Source: Folioceros fuciformis (lineage: Eukaryota). Taken from it: DNA of 42,268 nucleotides. The notes beneath the pieces are model-generated. The model was not told where the DNA came from, did not search any database, and saw only the letters and a program-made list of their open reading frames with translations. The position numbers and the translations under genes were made by a program. Positions 2,776-35,955 of the stretch are shown here, in pieces. The stretch spans positions 1 to 42,268 of the forward strand of contig JBNGIO010005082.1 in NCBI GenBank assembly GCA_049999805.1. The letters run 5' to 3'. Within the stretch, counting starts at the first letter, position 1; the number at the start of each line of letters is the position of its first letter.

Positions 2776-4307
2776 CGAACAAACAAATTGAGTGTCTTAA
2801 ACAAGCCTGTCACCTCACAGCGACGTTTCTATCCCAAGCATGCAGCCATCAGGGTACCAGCGTGAAGCCAACAGCACCCCTTCACAGTTACTCGAAAATC
2901 AGGATCACGAGCATGACAAAGCCTACAGGCTACAGGGATACAGAATCATCTCCGGATTTTCAATCACAATCTGGTGGTCACTCCATCGCCCACAAAACCT
3001 GCAAGAACGGAAGCTAGAACCCCTTCAGGATCTCCAAACTTTCCGACTGAGTGTTGCATTGGCCTCTTCAGCTTATTTTATGCCGAATGCGAACAACCTC
3101 CTTATCCAACACACGAGTGATTATCTTCTTCCGGCGTTCGTTCTTGACAGCTCGTCGAACACACTGGTGGATGATGCAAAGGCATGAGTTCATAGACATA
3201 TCGAAGCTGGGGTTTGCCGCCATGATCACGAACACCGTAGCGTGCATTTCCGGTCCAAGGTGGAGCCAGAAGTTCACGATGTTGCGATTTCTGAGAGACT
3301 CAGTGCTGAATAGTCGGCGGTACTAAGTCCTGTGCATCTCACTGTTGTTATTGCATACTGATGTCTAAACCTGACAGGCATTGCTGGACGTGTGCTACAG
3401 TGGAGGGTGGGTGACGGCTGGCGAGCAGGACTTAGCCAGGAAAGTTCAGCCAGGCCGGACAAGAGGAGGTTGTTAACTCGGTTGTTGCAACTGTTGAGAA
3501 GGCCGTCCTGCCGCCGTGTGCCGTCCTGCTGACGTGAAGTTTAGGAGACGACTCCAACCAGCTCGTCCTGTGGTTGAAAGGCCCCGCCCTTGCCTCTGTG
3601 ATGTCCGCCGACAGTGTGATTGGGTTCTTTTCCCCCTCTCGTCTCCTGCGCTCATCTAGCGCAGGAGACGTACATTTTCCATGGCATTTTCCAGCTGTTA
3701 AGCTGAGAGGTCTGGGGCTCTCTCTCCTGCGGCTGAAGCGCATCTCGTGGGACACACTCCTGGTCCGATTCTCCAATCGGGCTGTCGCTGCCCCTGCTGC
3801 TGCATTTCTCCAATCGTGCATGCGTCCATCGTTCCCCGGGTGCGAGTGGAGTAAAATCCGTCTAAGAAACTCTGGGAATTTCCTGGTACAATGCTTTTCT
3901 AGGAAGCTTGTTCGCATGTGTTCAGAGGATTTTCCTTTCTGCCTTCCCTTTATAGGACTTGTATGGGTAGACCATATGTATTTTCTCTGTTGGGCTGATG
4001 TGGGTGTATGGGCAACAGGAGCTAGTTGTTGCCTCAATGTTTGCTTTGCGTCATTGGCAGCTCGTGGGCCAATGGTAGCTACCTCCTCGGTGTCTTTGGC
4101 CTCCATAGAAGCTAGCTCTTGTTGTCCGTCCTGTCTTCAGTTAGCCTTGTTGTCGACTCTTGCTTCAGCATTATATATTGGTTCTGACATGTTTCCCGTC
4201 GACAGCAAACAAGCTTTGGGTCTCTTCCTCCCAGGGAAGATTCTTGGAAAGGAAGCTTTTTGGGAAGGGAGTCCTCACTGATTTTTTTATCAAGGAGAGG
4301 AAGCGCC

Positions 4308-4973
4308 ATGGCAGAACAACAAGCAGAAAGGGGAATGACCGGAGTGAGCGGGTCTCACACCATGACAGTCAAGGAGGATTCAAATCCAACGACTCCATCC
4401 GTCTACCGCCGTCACAGAAAGTGCTGCATATGTTGTGCTGTGGTTGCTGCCCTTATCGTAATCCTTGTCCTGGTGATCATCATTCTCTCGTTGACTGTAT
4501 TCAAGGCCAAAAGCCCCACTTTCACCACAGACAGTGTGATGCTGGAGAACATCGACCTCAATCTAGTTCCTCCACCGCAGGTAAACCTGACGCTCAGGAT
4601 CACACTGACTGTGCACAACCCCAACATAGCCAGCTTCAAGTACGGGAACAGCACGGCACATATCTACTACCGAGAAATTGAAGTGGGATATGTTCCCATA
4701 CTGGCAGGCGAGATGGAGGCACACTCTGCCAAGACTGCTAGCTCTAGCCTGATAATTGAGCTGGCTAAGTTCGTCTCGGAACCCCTCATCCTCATTCAGG
4801 ACGTTCTGGTTGGAGCCTTTCCTATTACCGTCAACTCTGTTCTCTCCGGCAAGGTTAACATCCTCAACATAGTCAAGAAGCATGTTACAGCCTCAGGATC
4901 ATGCACCACCACCGTTTTCGCTAATTTGACAGCAGGCCCCCTCGACTGTCAGTACTACACGAAGGGCCTGTGA
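4308..4973 (+). CDS. LEA_2 / NDR1-HIN1-like type II membrane protein (copy 1), intronless
   Basis: Basic/Cys-rich segment (RRHRKCCICC), hydrophobic TM helix ending in TVFKAKSP, NPN..SFKY motif and C-terminal Cys pair typical of LEA_2/NHL proteins. ATG at 4308. Confidence 0.9.
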   Translation: MAEQQAERGMTGVSGSHTMTVKEDSNPTTPSVYRRHRKCCICCAVVAALIVILVLVIIILSLTVFKAKSPTFTTDSVMLENIDLNLVPPPQVNLTLRITLTVHNPNIASFKYGNSTAHIYYREIEVGYVPILAGEMEAHSAKTASSSLIIELAKFVSEPLILIQDVLVGAFPITVNSVLSGKVNILNIVKKHVTASGSCTTTVFANLTAGPLDCQYYTKGL

Positions 4974-13803: not shown

Positions 13804-14490
13804 ATGGCAGAAGTACATGCATTAAGGGATGTGGACGGAGGAGACGCAGAGAATGGAGCGAACGGAGACACGGGGTCTCACACCATCGTGACAATGAAGC
13901 AGGATCCACGTGACAGCAGGAAGCGCAGCATCTTCCGTCGCTACAGAACGTGTTTAATATCCAGTGTTGTGGTGCTCATACTTATCGTCATTTTGATTGT
14001 CATCCTGGCCTTCACTGTGTTCAAGGCCAAAGATCCCAGTTTCAAAGTAGAGAGTGTGGAGCTGGAGAACTTCTCTTCGAATCCCTTACCACCACCGCGG
14101 ACGAATATGACGCTTAGGATCACAGCGACTGTGCACAACCCCAACATAGCCAGCTTCAAGTACGGCAACAGCACAGCATATATGTACTACCGGGGCATTC
14201 TAGTGGGAGTTGCTCCCATACCAGCAAGCGAGATGAAGGCACATGGTACGAAAGCAGTTAGCCTTGACCTGACTTTAGAGCTGGATACCTTCGTCTCCAG
14301 TCCTGCTATACTCATCTCGGACGTTATTGCCGGGGCCTTTCCCATGTCCTTCGATTCTACCATCTCTGGAAAAGTGAACATCGCCAACATAGTCAAGAAG
14401 CACATTACGGCCTCAGCAGTATGCAACACCACTATTCTCTCAAATTTTACAGAGAGCGCCATCGATTGTCAATACCACACGAAGCTCTGA
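13804..14490 (+). CDS. LEA_2 / NHL-like protein (copy 2), close paralog of 4308-4973
   Basis: Same architecture. The TVHNPNIASFKYGNSTA and NIVKKH segments are identical to copy 1. ATG at 13804. Confidence 0.9.
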   Translation: MAEVHALRDVDGGDAENGANGDTGSHTIVTMKQDPRDSRKRSIFRRYRTCLISSVVVLILIVILIVILAFTVFKAKDPSFKVESVELENFSSNPLPPPRTNMTLRITATVHNPNIASFKYGNSTAYMYYRGILVGVAPIPASEMKAHGTKAVSLDLTLELDTFVSSPAILISDVIAGAFPMSFDSTISGKVNIANIVKKHITASAVCNTTILSNFTESAIDCQYHTKL

Positions 14491-15934
14491 CCCCATGACT
14501 GTCAGGCTCGCCAACTTTTGCTCCTACGTGCTCCTTCCAAGGTACCCCTTTCACTTAGTACCACTGTCTTGCTCACCCTTGTCCCCAACTCAGAAGCAGG
14601 ATATGAGCAAGGACTTCAGAAACTTATCAATCTGGGTGTAACTTCATTGTTTGCTACACTAGAGTTCCCGTACTCCCTTTTCTTCCTACCACATCCTGAC
14701 CACAGGATTTGTCCACATATGGATTGGAGAGTTAGAGGCCATGCATCCCCTTTTTTTGGGGGCAGTGGAGTAAGCCTATCTCGAGATCCAGAAGCACGTG
14801 ATGAGGCTCTGGTTATAGCAAGCATGTGATTTCCGTAGGCAGAGTGTGACATAGGTCTCAGATGCCCTTTCACAATGTAGATACATAAAACGCGAAAAAG
14901 CTGTGTTCGTTTTGTTCCTCCTCCACTCTCTCCTGCGTGAATGAATGTCTGTACAGTACTGCCCGGAATGGGCGAGACGCTTGTTCCGTTGTCTGATTGT
15001 CCATCGTCCAGGAGGGAGGTGGGGCCTGCGTGACCTACAGTCGGTGCTGCCAGGCCACATGGTGGCCTCTGACCACTGCTCAGACCCACGAAAACCTGGA
15101 CCTCGACGCTGCCCCTTTTCTCAGGGCATGCAGGTCACATGGGAAACCAATCACATATGAGACGAGTCGTATGTGTGTGATGCTTTTGCCATTATTTCTC
15201 CACGGCAAATGTCATGCCTTTGGTCCGCTTGTGCACATCAAAAGAGAGTCCTGTGAAAATAGCATAGGGTTTGATGGATGCCATGTGTGTTCTGGAAGTT
15301 ACCTGCAATAAGAGAAAATAAAATAAAATAAAATAAAAAACGAAGCGTTGCAGCCTTGCAGGGAACCCGGCCCGGCCCAGCCAGCCAAGCCGGTGTTGGA
15401 GCCCGAATAATCTGACTTTTTCCCCTTCCAGCCACAAGTCTTTCCAGCTCACTCGGAGCAAAGCCCGTCCCCGCTGCGCGCTGGAAGAGAGCGCCCTCTG
15501 TCGTTCGAACCGCACTGGAGTCTGAGTGCAAAAGCTTGGGAGCAACAAGCGCAGCTCGAAATCGGTGCTGCCGATGGTCATTTGCAGGTTCGGGGCTCCC
15601 AACCCTTGTTGCTGTTGCATGGGGAGTAGTGTGGAAGTGCATTGTCTTCCTTTTTGCGGCTTCCCGATCGGCTTTGCTGCATTTTTGTTCCCGCTTGTGT
15701 TGCTTTAGATGAGGTGTGAAGACGGATCTGAGTGCGGCTGCTGGTGTCTGTGGCGGTGGTGAGAAGGTGCATCGGGAAGGTAGTGTGTAAGCAGCGGTGA
15801 GTTTGGCTTTTGGCAGGAATGTTCTTTCGTTGCTGATCTTTTTGTTGTGATCTTTGGTGAGCGCATGTGCAGGGGAAGAAGGAGTTAGGCAAGGCGGTGT
15901 CTTGTTCCTCCTCAGGATCTGAGGGGAGGCAGAC

Positions 15935-17979
15935 ATGAGGCACGATTCTCCTAAAGCGCGAGGCGGCCAGGATTCCTTGGGGCAGCAGATCATCCGAGTC
16001 ATCAGCAATGTAGGCTTCGCGTTCTTCGTGCTTGCCGTGCTTACGATCACCGTGATCGCGGTCACCTACCAGCCTCCGGATCCTCTGACGCAGCGGGGTG
16101 ATGAGATGTCCAGTATCTTGTCCGTGATCCAGAACTCCAGTTTCCGGCAGGATAATACCGTGATTGTGACGGGGGAAGAGTTCGGGAAGCCCAACTCGGA
16201 AGGGGCCATCACTCGGGACGATGTGGCGGACTTGCAGCATGACGCTTTGCCTGAAGAGGGGAAGAAGTGTTCGGGAGAGCTTGCTGTGGACTGCCTAAAC
16301 CCAGGAGTGAAAGCTGCCATCGAGGCCTGGAATCTGGACCACTTTCCTGCCCTGGACTTCTACAAGTATCGGCAGCCAGTGCATGTCCCGGACGATGCAC
16401 ACGCGTGTGATGTGGCTTGGAAGTACAGGGCCAAGTCGGATGGATCCTCCAGGATGTATAGGGATTACAGGAGGTTCGTGCTGAAGCTGCTGGAAGACTG
16501 TAAGTACGAAGTTGTTTCTTCTGGGACGTGGCACTCGGGCCACGGGGCGAAGCCAGGAAAGTATCACTATCCCGCCTCTCCTCCGCCTCCCCCGCCTGTG
16601 GAGCTGAACAATTCCGAGGACGATCCGGAAGATAGTCCGTTGGGCAATCCGGATGGCTCGGGTGAGAACCATGAAGGGGATGGGGCCGCGCCGGGCAACG
16701 TAGAGGGCGGAGGGGACGAAAACCCCTTGGGCGGAGAGCACCCGAACCCAGATGGTGGCAATACCGCGACTCCTGATGGCGAACAAGTTCATGCTGACTC
16801 GAATGGTGGAGAGAATCCAAACCAGGACCCGAGCGCAACTCCGGCTGTCATCGCTGAGCAAGGAATCGAGGTTGGTGTGGATAATGTGCAGGTCGCCGAC
16901 CTGACCCCGGTGGCGACGGAATCATCTATTAGGGAGCACAAGTACTTGCTCTATGAGAGAGCTGGTGACTATTGCAAGCACATGAACCACTTCACATGGA
17001 GCTTCCTTTGTGCTCTAGGAGAAGCGAAGTACCTGGAAAGGACGTTTGTTATGGACCTTGACTTCTGTCTTTCGTGGTCTAACAACCCTGGTCATGGTGA
17101 CGAACTCAAGGATTTCCGCCTTTACTTTGATCTGGACCACTTGAAGGAGGCATTGCCCATCGTTGAGGTCGGTGATTTCTGGAATCAGTGGAAACAGTGG
17201 AACGAGCAACACCCTGACGATCAGTTGCAGGTTTGTCCATGTCACTCACCTTGTCGTTTGTCTCTTTCGGTATTTGTGCGGTTGTTTTGACTTGTGCATG
17301 TTTGCACTGATTATTGATTGACATGTCCCTGCAGCTGCGTGACGTGCCGGAGTTTCAAACTACACCTATGGATCTCAAAGAGGACGATCATACCCTAGTT
17401 AGACGGCAGTTCCCTCTTCCAGAACCTGATAATTACTGGTACAGAGTCTGCGAGGGACCAGCACAGAGCGTGGTGGAGCGGCCTTGGAGCATATTGTGGA
17501 AGTCGAAGAGGATCTTAAATATTGTTGAAGCTATCTGTGGAAGGATGGAGTGGAAGTTCGATGTTCTTCATGTCATTCGCGGTGACAAGGCCAAGAACCA
17601 CGAACAGTATCCGCACTTGGATGCAGACACCCAACCTGACAGTATCTTGGACAAACTGCAGTACAAGTTACAGATTCAGGCACGGCGGAACATCTACATA
17701 GCCACTAATGAGGTGGAAACCTCCTTTTTCGACAAGTTGCGGGGGCTCTACAACATACACTTTCTTGATGACTTCAAGGATCTATGGGAGCCAAGCAGTG
17801 ATTGGTATGAGTCGACGAAGTTACTGCTAGAGTCACGGGGTCAGACGGACAAGGAACCAGAATTCGATGGCTACATGAGGGTGATGGTCGATTCGGAAGT
17901 CCTTTACCGGGCCGAAAAGAAGATTGAGACATTCAATGACCTGACGGCAGACTGTAAGAACGGTGTGAACACCTGTTAG
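15935..17979 (+). CDS. SUB1-like (At4g08810-family) / O-fucosyltransferase-related type II membrane protein; exons 15935-17230, 17335-17979
   Basis: N-terminal TM followed by TYQPPDP. Family motifs CDVAWKYR, RMYRDYRRF, WSFLCALGEAKYLERTFVMDL, KDFRLYFD, HVIRGDK, IYIATNE, EFDGYMR, ETFNDLTADCKNGVNTC. Phase-0 GT-AG intron. Confidence 0.88.
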
Positions 17980-19511
17980 ATCTTATTGATCCGTAACAAG
18001 GTTCGGCCTCGCGATTGCAGTCTTTTTTGCGTTCAGAGGCTGGAGTTTTCTGCTGCAGCCCCTCTGAAGTGGGCATGGTGGCGGTGTGGCACGTCGAACG
18101 ATCACGTAGGTGCCTGGCAGGGCAACAGGGGCTGTGAAGACTTGGAAGTGTTCTCTCCCCTTTGGCGCGGCTAGCTGAATTTTGAGAACTGGATGCAGTG
18201 TAGACGTAGACACTAACTTCAGGGGGTGCATTATTTGTCTGTGGTAGGAGGTAAACAGGGGTGTGTCAGGATCTGTCCTCTCTCCCCGTGTGGGGTAGCT
18301 ACTAGTTCCTGTCCTCTCAGACATTGCAGAGTCGGGTAGCATGTTTACAGCGTTGGGTTGGTGAGCGTAGGGAGAGTTGAACTTCCTGCTAGCTGTACCC
18401 ACCTGCGTGGTCAGAAATCCGTCTACATATATTTCTTCGTGCGAACATCCCCCACGCTCACTGCAGGAGTTTTTCTGCGTTCACTCCTTTCCGTGTACTG
18501 TTAACAAGCCATGGTGTATTAGCCATTCTATTTAAGCTTCAGATCATGAAGGCTTTGAACTCCGTAGGAGAGGAAGAAGACCCCAGCCAATTGAGTTATG
18601 TCGCGACCTCCTCTGCGTCACCTGGTCTGGCAGGAAAGTGGCCGTTGTGTTGTCGTCTGAAGCTTTGACAGCTTGTAGCGTGTTTTGGCATAACAGTTGT
18701 ACGTACATACATAAAAAACAGAAAAGATTGGCGAGAGACAAATGTGAAATGTCATATAGACTTCATTTGGAGATGTGGAGATCGAGTTGAGCTAAAATGG
18801 CCTCCCCTGTGCTCGTCGAGCAAACACTACAGGCTGCTAGCCAGCAAGCAAACAAAAGAGATACATGTGAAGCGAAGTCGTCTGCAACAGACGTCAGGCC
18901 AACGAACGGCAGCGAGGTAGATGCAGCTAGGGAACCGTTGAGCCGTCACACCTGCTGGTTAGAGTGCTGCAGAAGATTGCGAGAAGTGTGTCATAACCAT
19001 CTGCGGATTGTCCTTGAGGCTGATGGCGATGTCGCATAATGAAGCCCGCGGGAAGGTTGTACCGAGTACGTGGTCACTCTCCACCTGCAAATTGCTTGCT
19101 CCTGGACCGGGCCGGGGCTCTGCACCCCCGCGTTACGGCCTCTGGCGTGGAGCTCTTAGAGAGGGCCTGGCCTGTGTCCCTCTTCAGCCGCGTCGGCCTC
19201 GATATTTTCATGTCACGCACGACCTTCGCTTGCCTCTGGTGCAAATCCGAGAGGACAACACGGACTGCAAAGAAGTTCAGCCTCAGCCACGGCTTCGTCT
19301 TTCGTCAGGGTAATGGTGCTTTCTTCTTGATTGATTCCTGTCGAGGACCCGAGTGTGTGACACCTCTCGTGAAACTTGTGAGCTGGATCCAGGTTCTTGG
19401 AGTGCGTTAGCTTCTGCCATGACAGCAGCCGCTGCTGAATGAACGACTTGTGTGCTCTGGATTGACAGGAAAGAAGGAGAGATCGAAGTACTGCACTACT
19501 AGGTAGGGCAA

Positions 19512-20201
19512 ATGGGAGACTCCGAGGAGAATGAAGCTGCCCGGATGACGCAGGGGCTCAAAACGGAGGACAAAGTGCTGCGTGTGGAGGAGGAGATTGG
19601 AACTACCGTCAGGCCTCCCTTCCGCCGTTCCAGGTGCTTCAAATGTGTGGGGCTGACAGCAGCTGCCATAGTCGCTCTGGTTCTTGTCATTGTCATTCTT
19701 GTGTTCACGCTGTTCAAGCCGAGAGATCCTCGGATCAAGCTGGAAAGCGTGACCCTGACCGGATTGCAGTTCGGGCCCGGCGCGGGAAGCTTGCTGCCGT
19801 CTGTGAACATGAGCCTGGAGGTGACGGTTGCCGTGAAGAATCCCAACCATGCCAGCTTCAAGTATAAAGCCACCACCACTCGCTTCTACTACCGAGAGAC
19901 GGCTGTAGGAGAGGCACCCTTGCCTGGAGCCGAGCTGGATGCCGACAAGACCGACATCCAAGTCACCATGGTTGTCATCCAGGTTGACAGGTTCCTCAGC
20001 AGCGACCCCTCCAACCTTGTGCTCGACGTTCTTCGTGGAGAGCTACCCTTTTCGACCAAGAGTGAGGTGGATGGCTATGTGAACGTGCTCAACGTCTACA
20101 AACACCACGCCCATGGAATAGCTCAGTGCGACATGGTCATCTTCCTTGGAAATCAGACCGTGGGAGCCATGAAGTGTGACTACAATGTAGATCTGCACTA
20201 A
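19512..20201 (+). CDS. LEA_2 / NHL-like protein (copy 3, more divergent)
   Basis: RRSRCFKC, TM helix, FTLFKPRDP, VKNPNHASFKY and C-terminal Cys pair. Confidence 0.9.
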   Translation: MGDSEENEAARMTQGLKTEDKVLRVEEEIGTTVRPPFRRSRCFKCVGLTAAAIVALVLVIVILVFTLFKPRDPRIKLESVTLTGLQFGPGAGSLLPSVNMSLEVTVAVKNPNHASFKYKATTTRFYYRETAVGEAPLPGAELDADKTDIQVTMVVIQVDRFLSSDPSNLVLDVLRGELPFSTKSEVDGYVNVLNVYKHHAHGIAQCDMVIFLGNQTVGAMKCDYNVDLH

Positions 20202-28621: not shown

Positions 28622-29284
28622 CTAAGCACGACAAGACGGTAGTGTCAACCCGCCACAGAAAAAGGAAACGATGATGTACACCAAGACGATGATGAGGCAA
28701 GTCAATGAAGCCAGGAGCTTAGTATTTTGCAACCACAGCGACTGCCGAAGACGGCGGGACTGCTTCTGAAACCTAAAACTGTTGTCCTGTATCGTAGCAG
28801 TTTTGTCCACTAGTAGTTCAATCCTGTCCCCTCGTTCCAAAACCTTGTCAATGTTCTCAACCATCACCTTGTGCACCTCGGCCATCTCTCCCTTCACCCT
28901 GGTGATGGTGTCGGCATTGGGGTTATTCGAGTAGTATTCCATCTGCTGGTTCAAACTCCTGGAAAACTCATCGTTCATTGCATACGGCAGAGCAGTGGAG
29001 GCCACTCTCCCATATGCCTTCATAAATCTGCCATGAATGTCCTCCAGAAAAGCGAACGGAATCCTCCTCCCCATGGTCTCGTCCGCCATACACAGGAAAG
29101 CCAGCCCGTCTGCCTTCATGATGTGGAAAATATGGCGGTCCTGGGAGTAGGAAGCCCGCGTCTCCGGGACCGCTGGCACCCTCTCCAAAATTCGCCGCGC
29201 AATGGTCCCCGCGTTGCTGGATGCAGCGCTGAACTCCGCCAGCACCAAGGTACCCCTGGCTACCAGAGCGTACAAAATCGCCAT
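28622..29284 (-). CDS. VAMP71: VAMP71-type longin R-SNARE (VAMP714-like), intronless CDS
   Basis: MAILYALVARG..VLAEF longin start, GRRIPFAFLEDIH, AMNDEFSR, SNARE motif VMVENIDKVLERGDRIELLVDKT, C-terminal TM and CGGLTLPSC. Confidence 0.95.
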   Translation of the reverse strand: MAILYALVARGTLVLAEFSAASSNAGTIARRILERVPAVPETRASYSQDRHIFHIMKADGLAFLCMADETMGRRIPFAFLEDIHGRFMKAYGRVASTALPYAMNDEFSRSLNQQMEYYSNNPNADTITRVKGEMAEVHKVMVENIDKVLERGDRIELLVDKTATIQDNSFRFQKQSRRLRQSLWLQNTKLLASLTCLIIVLVYIIVSFFCGGLTLPSCRA

Positions 29285-29658
29285 GGCTCCCGTTCCCCCG
29301 AGAGCGAGTCGCCAGTGAGATCGTGAGAGCGGGCGAGATGCAGAGGAAATCCGCTCCCAATTCAAACCTCGACCTTCACGATCCGGCTGGCGGGAATTGT
29401 GTTTGTGCCCGGGCTTCCGCGCTCAGATCTCCATCCGTCCCGCCGCGCGAACCTCGCTATTACCCCTCCGGAGTAAGAAGCCAAGCCTGTTACACAGTCT
29501 ACTAATATATACTGGAGATGGTCTAACATTGCTTTGGATAGCACGGCTAAACGCGAAACGGTAAACTGGAGTACGGCCAGTTGTTGAACTTGCAAGGCAC
29601 AGTTGTCTGGCCAGGCTCCAATTTGAGCTTCACACCATCGAGATCCAGGAAGCAGGCC

Positions 29659-31531
29659 ATGAGCAGGCTGTCATCGCTGAAAGCCTCCGGCGTGGTTGCA
29701 GCTGGATTTGAGGTCGAGGGAAATGGCGGGTGCTGCCGGTCTTGGTGCATCCGGACATCATCGGTGGAGTATTCTGAGGCTCGGACGTCGGGGAGGGCCG
29801 TGGAGGTCTGCAATTTCTGTTGCTGCGGACATCTTGTGGCTTTGGTTAGGGAGTGTGTCTTATTTTTGACGATTCCAGGTGGATGGAGAGTTGTGTGTGC
29901 AAGGTGTGAGAACCTATGATTTCCATTCTGCAGAAGCATCGTTTGAGAAGCTGGAGAAGCCATATCCCGGAGTGAGGGTTTTATCCTCAGGTGACCGGAT
30001 TTCAGCTTCTTTGGTTACGGGACAGAGAATTTTTTGGATGGTTTGTGTTTGTTTTTGTTTTAGGAGTTAAATGTGCGTTGGTTCTGGGTGTAGGTAAGCT
30101 GCATGTTGAAGATCTGGAGCGAGGTCTGAGGTTCAGCTGCGGGCAGTTTGTGAGTGATTGGTGGTGCCCTCGTTTTGTGCGTGTTTAGGAAGGTTGGATT
30201 GGTTTAATTTGGGGTGGTGTATTGTTTTGCTCGTTGCCAGACGTGGTTGCCAGGACTACAGAGTCTGAGCCTGGGTGGAAATGTAACTACTGTCATTCGT
30301 AATGAGCTGGAACTCACTTGCCCCAAGTTGAATATGTCGGGTTCAGAGAGCTTTGACAGTTTGGAGGACACAGTTGCGTATGTCTGTGATCACCGTCGCA
30401 CAGGAGATTTGGAAACAGCGTCTGTTGGAAATTCAGCATTCGTTCATGGTCCCTGTCAAGGCTGGGTTAAGGTCCCGGCTGCATCATTCAAGGACCTAAG
30501 TTTAGCCCGTCCAGAGGTTGCAGCTGGCAAGCAGCAAATCAGGAAGGACGACCCTGGATTGAAGGATAGTGTTGGCGGCACTGAGAACCTTGGCATTACA
30601 TTTTCTGCTCAAGGAATTTTGTTCGACATAGAGCACCAAGCAGTGATGGCACAAGGACCTCTGAAAATATCCTGCCGCCTGAAGGGCTTGGAGGTAGTTT
30701 TATTTTATCTCCTGACCTGCTTTTGAATGAAAGTGAAGAGGTGTCCTATGCTACATAGCGGGGAATCTGGTCCCGTTAGTCCATGACTATATTCCATTCT
30801 TGCAGATAAGCGCAGGTGCAGGGGACCTCTTGCTGAATGAAGGAATTTTGGCTTTGCACGAGGGAGTATCAGTTACACTACAAGAACGTGAACTGAATAC
30901 TCCCAGACTCACCTGGTACTTTGGTAGGGTTGGGAATCCCCATGGCAACATCTTTGCACAAGATTCCAAACGAGGGGACTGGCATTCACGCATGCCACAG
31001 AAGTCACGCGACCTGGCTGTCGGGGAACGTAAATTAGCCCACCAACCAGCGGCCATAAATCTTGCTAAAGAAGACATGGTGGCGCGTTTTACGGCAATCG
31101 TGAGAGGGATGCGTACCAGTGGTCCGTGTCTTGGGAAGCAGTTGAAAATCATGCCGTTTTGCAGATGCACCCGCAGAATTTCTGCAGGAGACATCTCTGC
31201 TCCGACACTCCTCACTAGCAGGCCTCGCAAGCATCACATTCTTAGGGCTGTAACCAGGAATCTCTGCACCAGGGCAGTGTCCTTCGACTCCTCGGGCTTC
31301 CACATTCATCTGTCCCAGCTGCTGCAACTCACACGAGAAGACCTCGCGTTGATGGACATCGCTGTTCCTGTTTCGCGCAGTGGCACAGCCTCATCGCAGG
31401 TGAGGGAGCGAAATGTTTACCCTCTTCTTGCTGCTAGAGAGGAACAAGGAATGGACATCGTGACGGACACGAACAATGTCGTACTTGTAGAAGGTCCCTT
31501 CCGCCTTCTGCTGGCAAAAGAGCGAAGGTGA
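29659..31531 (+). CDS. Predicted 497-aa protein resembling cyanobacterial LptC (beta-jellyroll lipid-transport protein); exons 29659-29805, 29879-29990, 30094-30149, 30241-30693, 30806-31531
   Basis: Four GT-AG introns (phases 0,1,0,0) join five separate ORF pieces into one stop-free frame with repeated beta-strand-like motifs: WCIRTSSVEYS, VDGELCVQG, GKLHVEDLERGLRFSCGQFTW, GITFSAQGILFDIEHQAVMAQGPLKIS, ISAGAGDLLLNEGILALHEGV, LNTPRLTW. The gene model is better supported than the family call, which is from memory. Confidence 0.6.
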
Positions 31532-31787
31532 CGACTTGTCAGATTGGTCTCGTGGTATGTCACAAAAACTCGTATCTTTATTTGTACCTTGTCTATGAGA
31601 CACAAAAAATAGCACATAAAAGGAAGCTGATTGTCTGCTACTTTCAGTAAGAAGCCTCCGGATTGATATATGGAGGCCCACAAAGGCACAAAGTTATACA
31701 CTTCCACGATGTATCAAATCAAAGTCCGTTATGGAACATATGGCCTGACACAGAAACGCTGGTTGCCCTGGACTCGGTTTGTTGAGC

Positions 31788-32132
31788 CTAACTGTGTAAC
31801 TGAGGAATATAACAGCCCGGAACGGGAACTGTGAAACCCCCGTAAAGGCAGGCTAAGATGAGGTCGGCTAAGCCGCCAGAGAGAGGGTAAGCTCCGGGGT
31901 TGGGAGTACGACACCAGCAATAGTAGGCAGCACTTATTCCCGCGCCACAGCACTCTCGCAAGTATTCCGGGCGTCCGCTGTAATCAAAATTTGCGCATTC
32001 CTGATTGTTTGGTTCGTTGACGAGACACTCAGTGGGGACATTGTCATAGGCCAGCGCTCCACGAGCCGCCCCTGCCACCATCAACACAGCTGCCAGAGCT
32101 GTCCATGCAGCCAACCTTAGGTCAGGAGACAT
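31788..32132 (-). CDS. Small secreted 8-cysteine-motif protein (nsLTP/prolamin superfamily), copy A
   Basis: Signal peptide MSPDLRLAAWTALAAVLMVAG; pattern C..C..CC..CWC..C..C. Confidence 0.85.
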   Translation of the reverse strand: MSPDLRLAAWTALAAVLMVAGAARGALAYDNVPTECLVNEPNNQECANFDYSGRPEYLRECCGAGISAAYYCWCRTPNPGAYPLSGGLADLILACLYGGFTVPVPGCYIPQLHS

Positions 32133-32331
32133 CGCAAGATCCAACCAAGACTGTGCGTCAAGGAGAAGAAGAAGAAGACGAAGAAGAAGAAGAAGAAGAG
32201 GTTTCCTCTAGTCCAGTGAAGGGCGGATGAGGGAATGCAGGCCTTCGTGACGCTGGTAGGCCAGTGCATACCGGGGTGGAACATATACGCCGGCGAGGTG
32301 CCGGACATGAGGTTGGTGATTGTTGCTCCTC

Positions 32332-32515
32332 ATCTGTTGAACAACTCACACTTTCGGCGTGTGATCTCTACTTCGCCTTCCACGGCCGTCACAGATGGTA
32401 CCACTGTTACCTTCTGACCTAGGGGATGCTGGGTAGCTCAAATTCGTGCCACTCCGTCCCTGTCGACAGGCAATCCATGCGGTTCATGGTGCTACGGCCT
32501 GGAAACCTTCCACTA
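32332..32515 (-). promoter_or_regulatory. Conserved upstream block of the 8-Cys genes (also at about 34290-34475 and 36138-36320)
   Basis: Colinear motifs tctgttgaacaactca, cggcgtga, ccttctga, agctcaaattc..ccactccgt and catgcg..tcat..gctacggcctg lie 5' of all three copies, with minor variation. Confidence 0.7.
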
Positions 32516-33795: not shown

Positions 33796-34098
33796 TTACG
33801 GGGAAATGCAACTGGGAGGGGGCTCTGCAAAACCAAATGTCCCGCAAGCTGCGACCATCCCCGCCAGCGCGTTCTCCACGAGGTAAGTACCGTTCCTCCC
33901 ACACAAGCAACTGTAGATGTCTCCCACGGTGACACAGCAGTCATGGCCGCTTGTGAAGATTCCGGTGATGCTAAAATCCACGCAAGCAGTAAGTCCAGCC
34001 AAGTAAACGTAACACGGCTCCTGCGCGAACAGTCCAAGAGGCGCCACTGCCACCAGCAACAGAGTCGTCCATGCAGCCAGCTTCATGTAAGGCGACAT
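33796..34098 (-). CDS. Small secreted 8-cysteine-motif protein, copy B
   Basis: Signal peptide MSPYMKLAAWTTLLLVAVA; pattern C..C..CC..CLC..C..C. Confidence 0.85.
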   Translation of the reverse strand: MSPYMKLAAWTTLLLVAVAPLGLFAQEPCYVYLAGLTACVDFSITGIFTSGHDCCVTVGDIYSCLCGRNGTYLVENALAGMVAACGTFGFAEPPPSCISP

Positions 34099-35634
34099 CT
34101 CAGACCGAGAGTGAAGGGAACAAGGCCCGAGGCAAGGAGAAACAGGAGAACCCGATTCCGACTTTCCGAAACTGCTCAGCCAGACGCTGGAAGTTGTGAC
34201 GCTGGTAGACGAGGTTGTGAGCGCACAGCACAGCACACAGCGAAGGGGAACTTGTAGGCTCCGGGGAAACGAGGTAGGTCATGGCAGCTTCTCTGTTGAA
34301 CAACTCATACCGCGTACCTCCGGCGTGAACGCTACACTTCGCGTGTGAGGACGGTCACAAATTCGTTCAGTGTCACCCTCTGATACCTGGCAGCTCAAAT
34401 TCATACCACTCCGTACTCATCGAGACTCTGGTAGTGCATGCGAATCATGGCTCTACAGCCTGCTCAACTTCCACCGGGATCTCAGTGAAATGAAAATGGG
34501 AAAGGCTCCCTAACACCGATGAAGGACAGACAAGAAGATTACCATCTAATCGTTCTCGTGAACCTGATAAACAGTACTGCTCCCTTGTTCCTCCCACCTG
34601 AAGTAAATCAATCAGCTACTAATGAAGGTGTTATAAACTTGTTCGTCCTTGCAGGATATCAGTTCACAACTGGAGAGGTGCTGTAAAGGTGCAGCAACAG
34701 AGGCCTCAACCAGACTGCAAATTTGGCCTCATCCAGCTGAAAAACCTTCACCAATCTGGTTAGCAGCTTCTGGTGCAACAGGCGATTCTCGTCCAAAGCC
34801 TACAGTCAGCCGGGGCCTCCTGTATCGAACTCCTGATGGGGATTCCCAAAAGGAATATTGCTTAGTCTGAAAAACAAGTGGGAAAACAAAACAGTGTCAT
34901 CGGAGCTCGAGGGGGTTGGAAAGGATATGTGACTGTACACTTGCTGATAGCAGAATGTGATGCTCTGGATTGTTTTCTCCCTGAGCTTCTGTTTGCATCT
35001 GGCATGCATTTTTGCAGTCTATCAAGGAATATTCAGTTCCGTTAGAATCTGCGTGTGAGATCAGAGGGGGTTCGATGGTTCGGGTACATCTGTTTGTGAC
35101 CATGTAGCTTGCATCTGCAGATTGGCCTGGAGATATCCTGGGCGTTGCAGGCACAATCAGCAACTGGAACGTTGAGCCTTCAACCTTTGAGTTTGGATCA
35201 TACAGTACTGAGGGACATGGAAAAAGTTCATCGATTTTTATTAATTCAGGAGACGCAACTGTGAAACTGACTGTTCGGACTCCTCATGGTGGTGCCGTGT
35301 TGGTTGCCAAACTGGGGCGGCTATGCGATGACACGAGAACCCTTCATTGCAACACTCCAAGACACGCGACCTTTCTTGCATTAAGACTTCAACCAAGTGT
35401 AGGAAAGCAGCAAGAAAAGTAGCCGAGTTTTGGATGGGAATCGCATTCTAAAGCTTACAAATATCTTGAGCAACCGGCTGTGAGTTGCAAGTAAAGTGAA
35501 CACCCTTGGGCATCAGAATCCATACCCTGTCCAATCTACGTCTTCTCTCAAATGTTAACACTAAGGTAGGTACTGTGGGAACATCAGCTTGTCGTCTGTC
35601 AACGGCAAACAGTAAGGTTGCCCAAAGTTGCAAC

Positions 35635-35955
35635 TTATGGCACACTACAACTCGCAAAGGGAAGTGTCAAACCAGTCGCCAAGCAACTTGCAACGAGCAC
35701 TTCCAGCGCGCTATCCACTCCAGGATCACCGTGGCTGGAAGTTTCACACAAGCACTTGTAGACGTCTTGTAAGGAGACACAGCACTGAACAAGCGCGTCG
35801 AACAGAGATCCGTTGGAGTTGAGGTCCAAGCAATCCTCTCCTCCAGGTAGGAAGTAAGCGTAACACTGTTCGCCCTGAGCGACCGCTGCGTGAGGACGTG
35901 CCACCGCTACCATGAACAGAGCTGTCCATGCAGCCAGCTTCAAGTAAGTCGACAT
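35635..35955 (-). CDS. Small secreted 8-cysteine-motif protein, copy C
   Basis: Signal peptide MSTYLKLAAWTALFMVAVA; pattern C..C..CC..CLC..C..C. Confidence 0.85.
   Translation of the reverse strand: MSTYLKLAAWTALFMVAVARPHAAVAQGEQCYAYFLPGGEDCLDLNSNGSLFDALVQCCVSLQDVYKCLCETSSHGDPGVDSALEVLVASCLATGLTLPFASCSVP

Follow-up and report, generated by a model that had tools for sequence, protein, structure and literature searches.

The locus and the gene model

The gene described here lies in a stretch of 42,268 nucleotides (nt) of Folioceros fuciformis DNA (contig JBNGIO010005082.1 of assembly GCA_049999805.1), referred to as the window. It is a genuine five-exon, transcribed nuclear gene of a plant-like eukaryote, situated on the plus strand, and its product resembles LptC, which in bacteria belongs to the periplasmic lipid bridge, where it cooperates with LptB2FG at the inner membrane and passes lipid to LptA/LptD. 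On its two sides stand a minus-strand SNARE gene with Longin and Synaptobrevin domains and a small cysteine-rich open reading frame (ORF). The neighbours in the window, including this Longin and Synaptobrevin gene, three LEA_2 genes and a RanBP zinc finger, are eukaryotic and typical of plants.

An earlier note, made from the sequence of the window, had joined five ORF fragments through four introns into one frame of 497 amino acids (aa), and the model tested was the corresponding spliced product of the plus-strand segments 29659-29805, 29879-29990, 30094-30149, 30241-30693 and 30806-31531. This product comprises 1494 nt, translated into 497 codons plus a stop with zero internal stops, and the joints of all four introns follow the GT..AG rule on the plus strand. 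By our own arithmetic, from (61/64)^497, an open frame of 497 codons has a chance of about 4e-11. The G+C fraction is 0.525 in the exons versus 0.435 in the introns. The parts of the gene are the following:

29470..29658, plus strand: 5' untranslated part of exon 1; the RNA-derived contig begins at 29470, and the first in-frame ATG of the 497-aa frame is at 29659.
29659..29805, plus strand: coding part of exon 1, residues 1-49; the donor at 29805/29806 is confirmed by the RNA contig, and the LptC-like match starts from residue 27-28.
29806..29878, plus strand: intron 1 in the form of the earlier note, 73 nt, GT..AG; backed by homology, with an acceptor that is absent from the RNA contig.
29806..29933, plus strand: intron 1 in the form of the RNA contig, 128 nt, GT..AG; an alternative, frame-shifting 3' splice site (joint 29803->29932, cut +2).
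29879..29990, plus strand: exon 2 in the form of the earlier note, 112 nt; its encoded residues lie within the first match to the LptC hidden Markov model (HMM), and its first 55 nt are gone in the observed isoform.
29991..30093, plus strand: intron 2, 103 nt, GT..AG; a joint of the RNA contig.
30094..30149, plus strand: exon 3, 56 nt; from the spliced frame and the RNA contig.
30150..30240, plus strand: intron 3, 91 nt, GT..AG; a joint of the RNA contig.
30241..30693, plus strand: exon 4, 151 aa, residues 106-256; corresponds to LptC-profile columns 143-292.
30694..30805, plus strand: intron 4, 112 nt, GT..AG; a joint of the RNA contig.
30806..30925, plus strand: first 40 codons of exon 5, residues 257-296, the end of the LptC-like region; within the second HMM match, and reached by hhalign up to residue 296.
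30926..31531, plus strand: C-terminal extension in exon 5, residues 297-497 plus the stop; no match in Pfam, NCBIfam or PDB sequence searches.

The transcript evidence comes from one contig of one public run (X1), in which 74% of the words sampled from the region were present and whose RNA label is a guess; two sister runs contained almost none of these words. The comparison covered 29000-32400, and contigs drop minor isoforms. The X1 contig, of 2290 nt, extends across 29470-32153 with four GT..AG joints and zero differing letters, and since the introns are missing from it, it derives from spliced RNA. Introns 2, 3 and 4 are reproduced exactly, together with the donor of intron 1. A two-codon upstream ATG is found at 29518, within the 5' untranslated part. 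Thus, of the structure proposed in the earlier note, the open frame, the last three introns and the intron-1 donor are confirmed, and the acceptor at 29878 is the part that went unseen, the contig using 29933.

Homology to cyanobacterial LptC

The earlier note had stated that cyanobacteria possess long, repeated LptC proteins and had perceived a parallel to them in the order of segments of the plant protein, and both claims found support. Cyanobacterial loci were gathered by a primer scan and then by matching of the LptC profile PF06835, which was above cut-off in 5 of 5 and subsequently in 75 of 81 sampled genomes of the cyanobacterial phylum, often as two to three stretches inside one ORF of 380-450 aa. 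A passage in a review of Synechocystis, which states that homologues of E. coli LptA/C/D/E are missing there, is at odds with these PF06835 matches. The 39 loci yielded 36 distinct ORFs, and after exclusion of 5 ORFs shorter than 340 aa the 31 that remained (340-470 aa) gave an LptC profile of 389 positions; this profile and its controls were built for the present analysis and are not curated.

Against this profile the spliced 497-aa protein scored 32.9 bits (E 1.4e-12 for one target), compared with 4.0 bits for the best of 2000 shuffles of the same protein. When profiles were built from random halves of the sample, eight out of eight gave between 23.7 and 34.5 bits, with shuffles at 6.2 or less, and the reversed sequence never exceeded 0 bits (-1.6 to -3.1 in five of the eight, unreported in three). 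The open frame of the isoform observed in the RNA scored 16.3 bits. The LptC signal appears only after splicing: when the window was translated unspliced in six frames, none of the resulting 1060 ORFs scored above 4.0 bits (E 0.89).

The match is made of two collinear HMM segments, in which residues 28-122 correspond to columns 70-159 and residues 229-295 to columns 265-333. Together they span all four exon junctions, the second crossing the junction of exons 4 and 5, and the parallel with the long cyanobacterial LptC is collinear over about 270 residues. Local hhalign comparison gave a probability of 83.5% (E 8.3e-6, 245 columns) and aligned residues 27-296 with columns 69-334 of 396. Exon 4 measures 151 aa, the corresponding stretch of profile columns amounts to 150 aa in most cyanobacterial proteins, and in a MAFFT alignment with 29 cyanobacterial segments (30 sequences) its residues W2, W75 and P105 are invariant.

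Two further comparisons concern the wider superfamily. Cyanobacterial profiles of the PF03968 type, prepared for three length groups of 9, 16 and 5 sequences, left the plant protein unreported or below its shuffles, and the protein was not found to belong to the LptA / LptD N-terminal domain family in this profile test. In the ESM Atlas, 18 of the 30 clusters nearest to exon 4 carry LptD_N or LptC families (LptA/LptD_N/LptC clusters, at 0.90-0.93), and exon 5 reached the same Lpt families only at 0.81, a weak lead; the matches to LptD_N clusters speak for the superfamily and not for the LptA/LptD_N family itself. As judged from these comparisons, residues ~27-296 are homologous, with strong divergence, to the periplasmic portion of the long LptC of cyanobacteria, and homology to cyanobacterial LptC is regarded as very probable.

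Weighing the evidence and competing explanations

The reading that is favoured here, with moderate confidence, is that of a real, expressed and diverged protein derived from LptC. A number of observations weigh against it, the first of which concern splicing. In the X1 contig the acceptor of intron 1 is at 29933/29934, not at 29878/29879, and 55 nt of exon 2 are lost. In this observed isoform the ATG at 29659 opens just 62 codons and the 497-aa frame is broken; the long frame is open over 29778-31528, with its first ATG at 30334, which would give 361 aa, and six ATGs are located upstream of that start. The junction 29805/29879 of the productive 497-aa form was not seen in the RNA, that is, in one contig of one run. 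The alternatives for intron 1 were enumerated as 15 GT donors by 15 AG acceptors, giving 225 pairs, 47 of which keep the frame open, and among these 47 the pair 29806..29878 ranked first against the LptC profile with 32.9 bits, followed by a runner-up with 25.9 bits and a baseline of ~16; homology therefore supports the junction of the earlier note. The RNA contig, in turn, shows 29933, and the simplest reading is alternative use of 3' splice sites, with one productive and one frame-breaking form.

Divergence is the second point. The plant protein shares 12-25% identity with cyanobacterial LptC over 44-157 aligned columns, and the probability of the global hhalign comparison was just 45.6%. 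One of the 31 ORFs behind the profile, L159, looks like a wrongly chosen frame, and, to judge from the half-sample profiles, the outcome probably does not depend on it. A tree was computed from 34 rows and 159 columns (L128, L129 and L159 having been dropped from 37); in it the end branch of the plant row measures 4.22 changes per column and the amino-acid composition of this row deviates from the rest, a combination that fits relaxed constraint as well as new function.

The third point is the absence of the N-terminal transmembrane anchor that defines LptC. Along the plant protein the 19-residue Kyte-Doolittle mean peaks at 1.12 (residue 255), by which the statement of the earlier note that no membrane anchor is visible has been confirmed. 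Among the cyanobacterial LptC ORFs, 22 of 31 possess a 19-residue window of at least 1.6, located within the first 51 residues in 21 of the 22. The plant protein begins at about profile column 47-69, and the anchor and the first strands are therefore gone.

Database searches supply the remaining points. Searches of single exons (49, 37, 151 and 241 aa) against Pfam-A and NCBIfam, at E up to 10, gave no match to LptC, OstA or LptD_N; in these, the curated models saw single exons only, whereas both LptC-matching blocks cross exon junctions. The comparison with LptC and OstA profiles suggested in the earlier note has thus had a divided outcome, positive for the spliced protein with our own profile and negative for single exons with the curated ones. 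PDB sequence searches with exons 4 and 5 returned irrelevant weak rows only. As the protein lacks the defining anchor and its single exons escape the curated models, it is treated as a homologue of LptC rather than as a canonical member. A match of exon 4 to DUF707 (Pfam, E 0.037) was under the cut-off and was taken as noise.

Public protein sets were searched with exons 4 and 5 and with P0001, the sole relative retrieved, and contain hardly any relatives. Exon 5, compared by phmmer with 1.84 billion representatives, gave P0001 as its one match (214 aa, E 5.4e-7), a singleton from one 2965-nt contig that is 29% identical across exon-5 residues 15-241 and has conserved islands in common with it. 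Word-based searches, run as 'longer' and 'near' for exon 4 and as 'longer' for P0001, found no relatives at the chosen cut-offs. No second copy turned up in the window, either by tblastn with the spliced protein or with the LptC profile.

Taken from this side, the main rival is a decaying relic, a descendant of LptC without a working protein, whose main transcript is mis-spliced and probably degraded or yielding a short peptide. The frame-breaking acceptor of the one RNA contig would be accounted for in this manner, as would the extremely long end branch with its deviant make-up, the lost anchor, the escape of the exons from curated profiles and the scarcity of relatives in public protein sets. 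Nevertheless, the 497-codon frame is still fully open over five exons, the frame-keeping junction coincides with the one of highest homology, and the W, W and P that are invariant in the family have been retained in exon 4. Furthermore, residues 297-497 (~200 aa), which belong to no known family, contain the conserved islands common to P0001, and their conservation at 29% identity suggests constraint in at least two lineages. The relic is considered unlikely, and it is reasonably probable that the LptC-derived protein is a working one.

A second explanation accepts a working LptC descendant and places it off the plastid envelope, as a lipid- or glycolipid-binding module in the cytosol, at contact sites or in secretion, with a function set by its C-terminal domain. 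The LptC-like region is preceded by no more than 26-27 residues, few for a transit peptide, and the lack of an anchor agrees with such a location, as does a 200-aa extension of no known family that is conserved with P0001. On the other side, nothing points positively to another location, and the Lpt machinery is known to have eukaryotic relatives only in TGD4 and LPTD1, both of them plastid proteins. We consider this placement improbable, more so than the relic.

Chance resemblance, in which an unrelated, beta-rich and lineage-specific protein would merely look like LptC, draws on the low identity, on the lack of curated-profile matches, on a profile and controls that are home-built and not curated, and on the want of a confident fold. 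Structure prediction with AlphaFold2 for exon 4 gave a predicted local distance difference test (pLDDT) score of 30.7 without an alignment, which is unusable, and a mean of 42.6 with 29 of the 31 cyanobacterial segments (L150, with a long insert, and L159, an outlier, were dropped). The exon-4 model was confident only at residues ~115-148, which form four beta strands, and fold comparison of this low-confidence model, guided by an LptC alignment, produced two very weak rows only among the families listed there; the jellyroll expected in the earlier note was therefore not shown with confidence. Against chance stand the 32.9 bits versus at most 4.0 for 2000 shuffles, the agreement of all eight half-sample profiles, the collinear match with the same spacing of 150-151 residues between blocks, the failure of LptA/LptD_N-type profiles to match, and the language-model features, which independently indicate the Lpt superfamily for two separate exons. 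Chance is judged very unlikely.

In the reading favoured here, the LptC-derived protein is of cyanobacterial and old descent. In the free tree the plant row falls beside the rows L150 and L133 (support 89/71, not strong) and in no starred set, and in the approximately unbiased (AU) test its grouping with a 13-row clade holding Calothrix, Chlorogloeopsis and Scytonema was not rejected (p-AU 0.483). On these cyanobacterial rows, the AU test and the weak placement single out no one donor lineage and do not separate endosymbiotic from other ancient transfer. A recent transfer from a nitrogen-fixing, Nostoc-type cyanobiont into the host nucleus, the other origin proposed there, could appeal to that unrejected grouping and is hardly credible, given an identity of at most 25% to every sampled cyanobacterial LptC (18-22% to the three heterocystous genera), the length of the end branch (4.22 changes per column), a free-tree position outside that clade (if not a strongly supported one), four spliceosomal introns, a lost anchor and a gained extension.

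A putative role at the plastid envelope

TGD4 and LPTD1 are the two LptD-type barrels of the plastid outer envelope in Arabidopsis, according to a 2025 review (PMC12096540) and a 2026 preprint (10.64898/2026.07.15.738633). LptD-type plastid barrels serve lipid import and remodelling, and how lipids cross between the envelope membranes at these barrels is unsettled. Full-text searches combining LptC with plant or alga terms, mostly judged from abstracts and with supplements excluded, found no plant or algal counterpart of LptC/LptA described, and a full-text search for the accession PF06835 returned unrelated uses of the string and soil-microbiome papers, the latter judged from listings. One review has a table in which the LptACD family appears with other families of lipid-transfer proteins that occur in prokaryotes (PMC5507252); its footnote may mark the family as prokaryote-only, a tentative reading of a garbled text that the passage does not settle.

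From the analogy with LptC and LptA we infer fold, lipid binding, location and partners. The LptC-like domain would most likely fold as a beta-jellyroll with an open groove for lipid acyl chains, and these chains might be passed edge-to-edge to a neighbouring jellyroll, for instance the N-terminal domain of an LptD-type barrel. Since the plastid keeps the LptD-type barrels TGD4 and LPTD1, the most likely workplace would be the space between the plastid envelope membranes, where the protein could act as a soluble bridge or adaptor. A partnership with TGD4 or LPTD1 and a role as inter-membrane bridge are conjectured from analogy, and the plastid lipid-bridge role is put forward as a tentative and rather doubtful proposal.

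A more detailed conjecture, of low probability, is that the soluble LptC-derived jellyroll docks on the N-terminal domain of TGD4 or LPTD1 and bridges the plastid inter-membrane space, that the C-terminal domain replaces the anchor by binding an inner-envelope partner, and that alternative splicing of intron 1 switches production on or off. If it were true, a part of the cyanobacterial Lpt bridge beyond the outer-membrane pore would have outlived endosymbiosis and would have been rebuilt for plastid lipid traffic. An intron-bearing eukaryotic descendant of LptC is a concrete candidate for the missing piece at the LptD-type plastid barrels, and the gene illustrates how a membrane-anchored bacterial bridge protein may be remodelled after nuclear transfer, with the anchor lost and a new tail gained. 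Its value in this regard is limited by the apparently narrow lineage, the extreme divergence and a productive splice form that was unseen.

Neighbouring genes and other observations

The SNARE gene (28625-29287, minus strand) faces the LptC-like gene head-to-head and is intronless, encoding a 221-aa Longin and Synaptobrevin protein of the VAMP7 type. The RNA contig of the SNARE gene reaches to 29463 and that of the LptC-like gene starts at 29470, so there is almost no promoter space between the two transcripts, or they overlap. At the other end, the RNA contig runs ~620 nt beyond the stop of the LptC-like gene (31532-32153), over a minus-strand ORF of 114 aa (31791-32132) which contains many cysteines and has, by eye, a signal-peptide-like start; the likeliest explanation is that an unstranded assembly has merged two convergent transcripts whose 3' ends overlap. 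Just upstream of the start of this small ORF, at 32154-32208, lies a run of GAA/AAG triplets at which the RNA contigs break, the repeat being skipped.

Three small minus-strand ORFs, at 31791-32132, 33799-34170 and 35638-35955, are similar by eye: in each, the N-terminus is hydrophobic and a cysteine pattern comes after it. This pattern is reminiscent of the eight-cysteine motif of plant lipid-transfer proteins, and no Pfam match was obtained for the three at E <=0.001. Further upstream, three paralogous and intronless LEA_2 (NDR1/HIN1-like) genes of ~225-230 aa are distributed over 16 kb of the plus strand (4299-4970, 13804-14487 and 19509-20198), with Pfam E-values of 1e-4, 3.1e-7 and 2.2e-5, two of the three falling just below the curated cut-off. 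Between the second and the third lies a large plus-strand ORF (15923-17290) carrying DUF7074 (E 1.8e-28), DUF7075 (E 1.5e-21) and an acidic, proline-rich low-complexity insert, which seems to resume at 17311-17979 (plus strand) after a short gap, presumably an intron.

A separate observation concerns the small cyanobacterial genomes of 1.8-2.2 Mb (loci L164, L166, L172, L173, L175-L177, L183 and L184), in which the LptC ORF is short, at ~200-220 aa. In these genomes an ORF of 320-330 aa with two PF03968 stretches is found a few hundred bases from the LptC ORF, as exemplified by the pair 84708-85190 and 85301-86011 on contig C4 of genome G026, and this arrangement suggests a conserved lptC-lptA-like gene pair.

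Comparison with known systems

The closest known counterpart of the plant protein is the long cyanobacterial LptC (~380-450 aa). The two are alike in the collinear match over plant residues 27-296, in the distance of 150-151 residues between the best-matching blocks, and in the tryptophan and proline positions that are invariant in the family. The cyanobacterial proteins mostly carry an N-terminal hydrophobic anchor, whereas the plant protein lacks both the anchor and profile columns 1-68, and the plant gene is nuclear, is interrupted by four spliceosomal introns and encodes a further 200 aa at the C-terminus.

With LptC and LptA of E. coli and LptH of P. aeruginosa, which form the beta-jellyroll periplasmic bridge, the plant protein has no detectable sequence match, and in structure it matches them very weakly, by a model of low confidence for which LptC sequences served as guide. 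Classical lipopolysaccharide (LPS) would not be the cargo in a plant. TGD4 and LPTD1, which function in the lipid traffic of plastids (PMC12096540; 10.64898/2026.07.15.738633), resemble the plant LptC-like gene in being eukaryotic nuclear genes of bacterial Lpt origin, and they are the natural candidate partners of the LptC-derived protein; they differ in being membrane beta-barrels that descend from another Lpt component.

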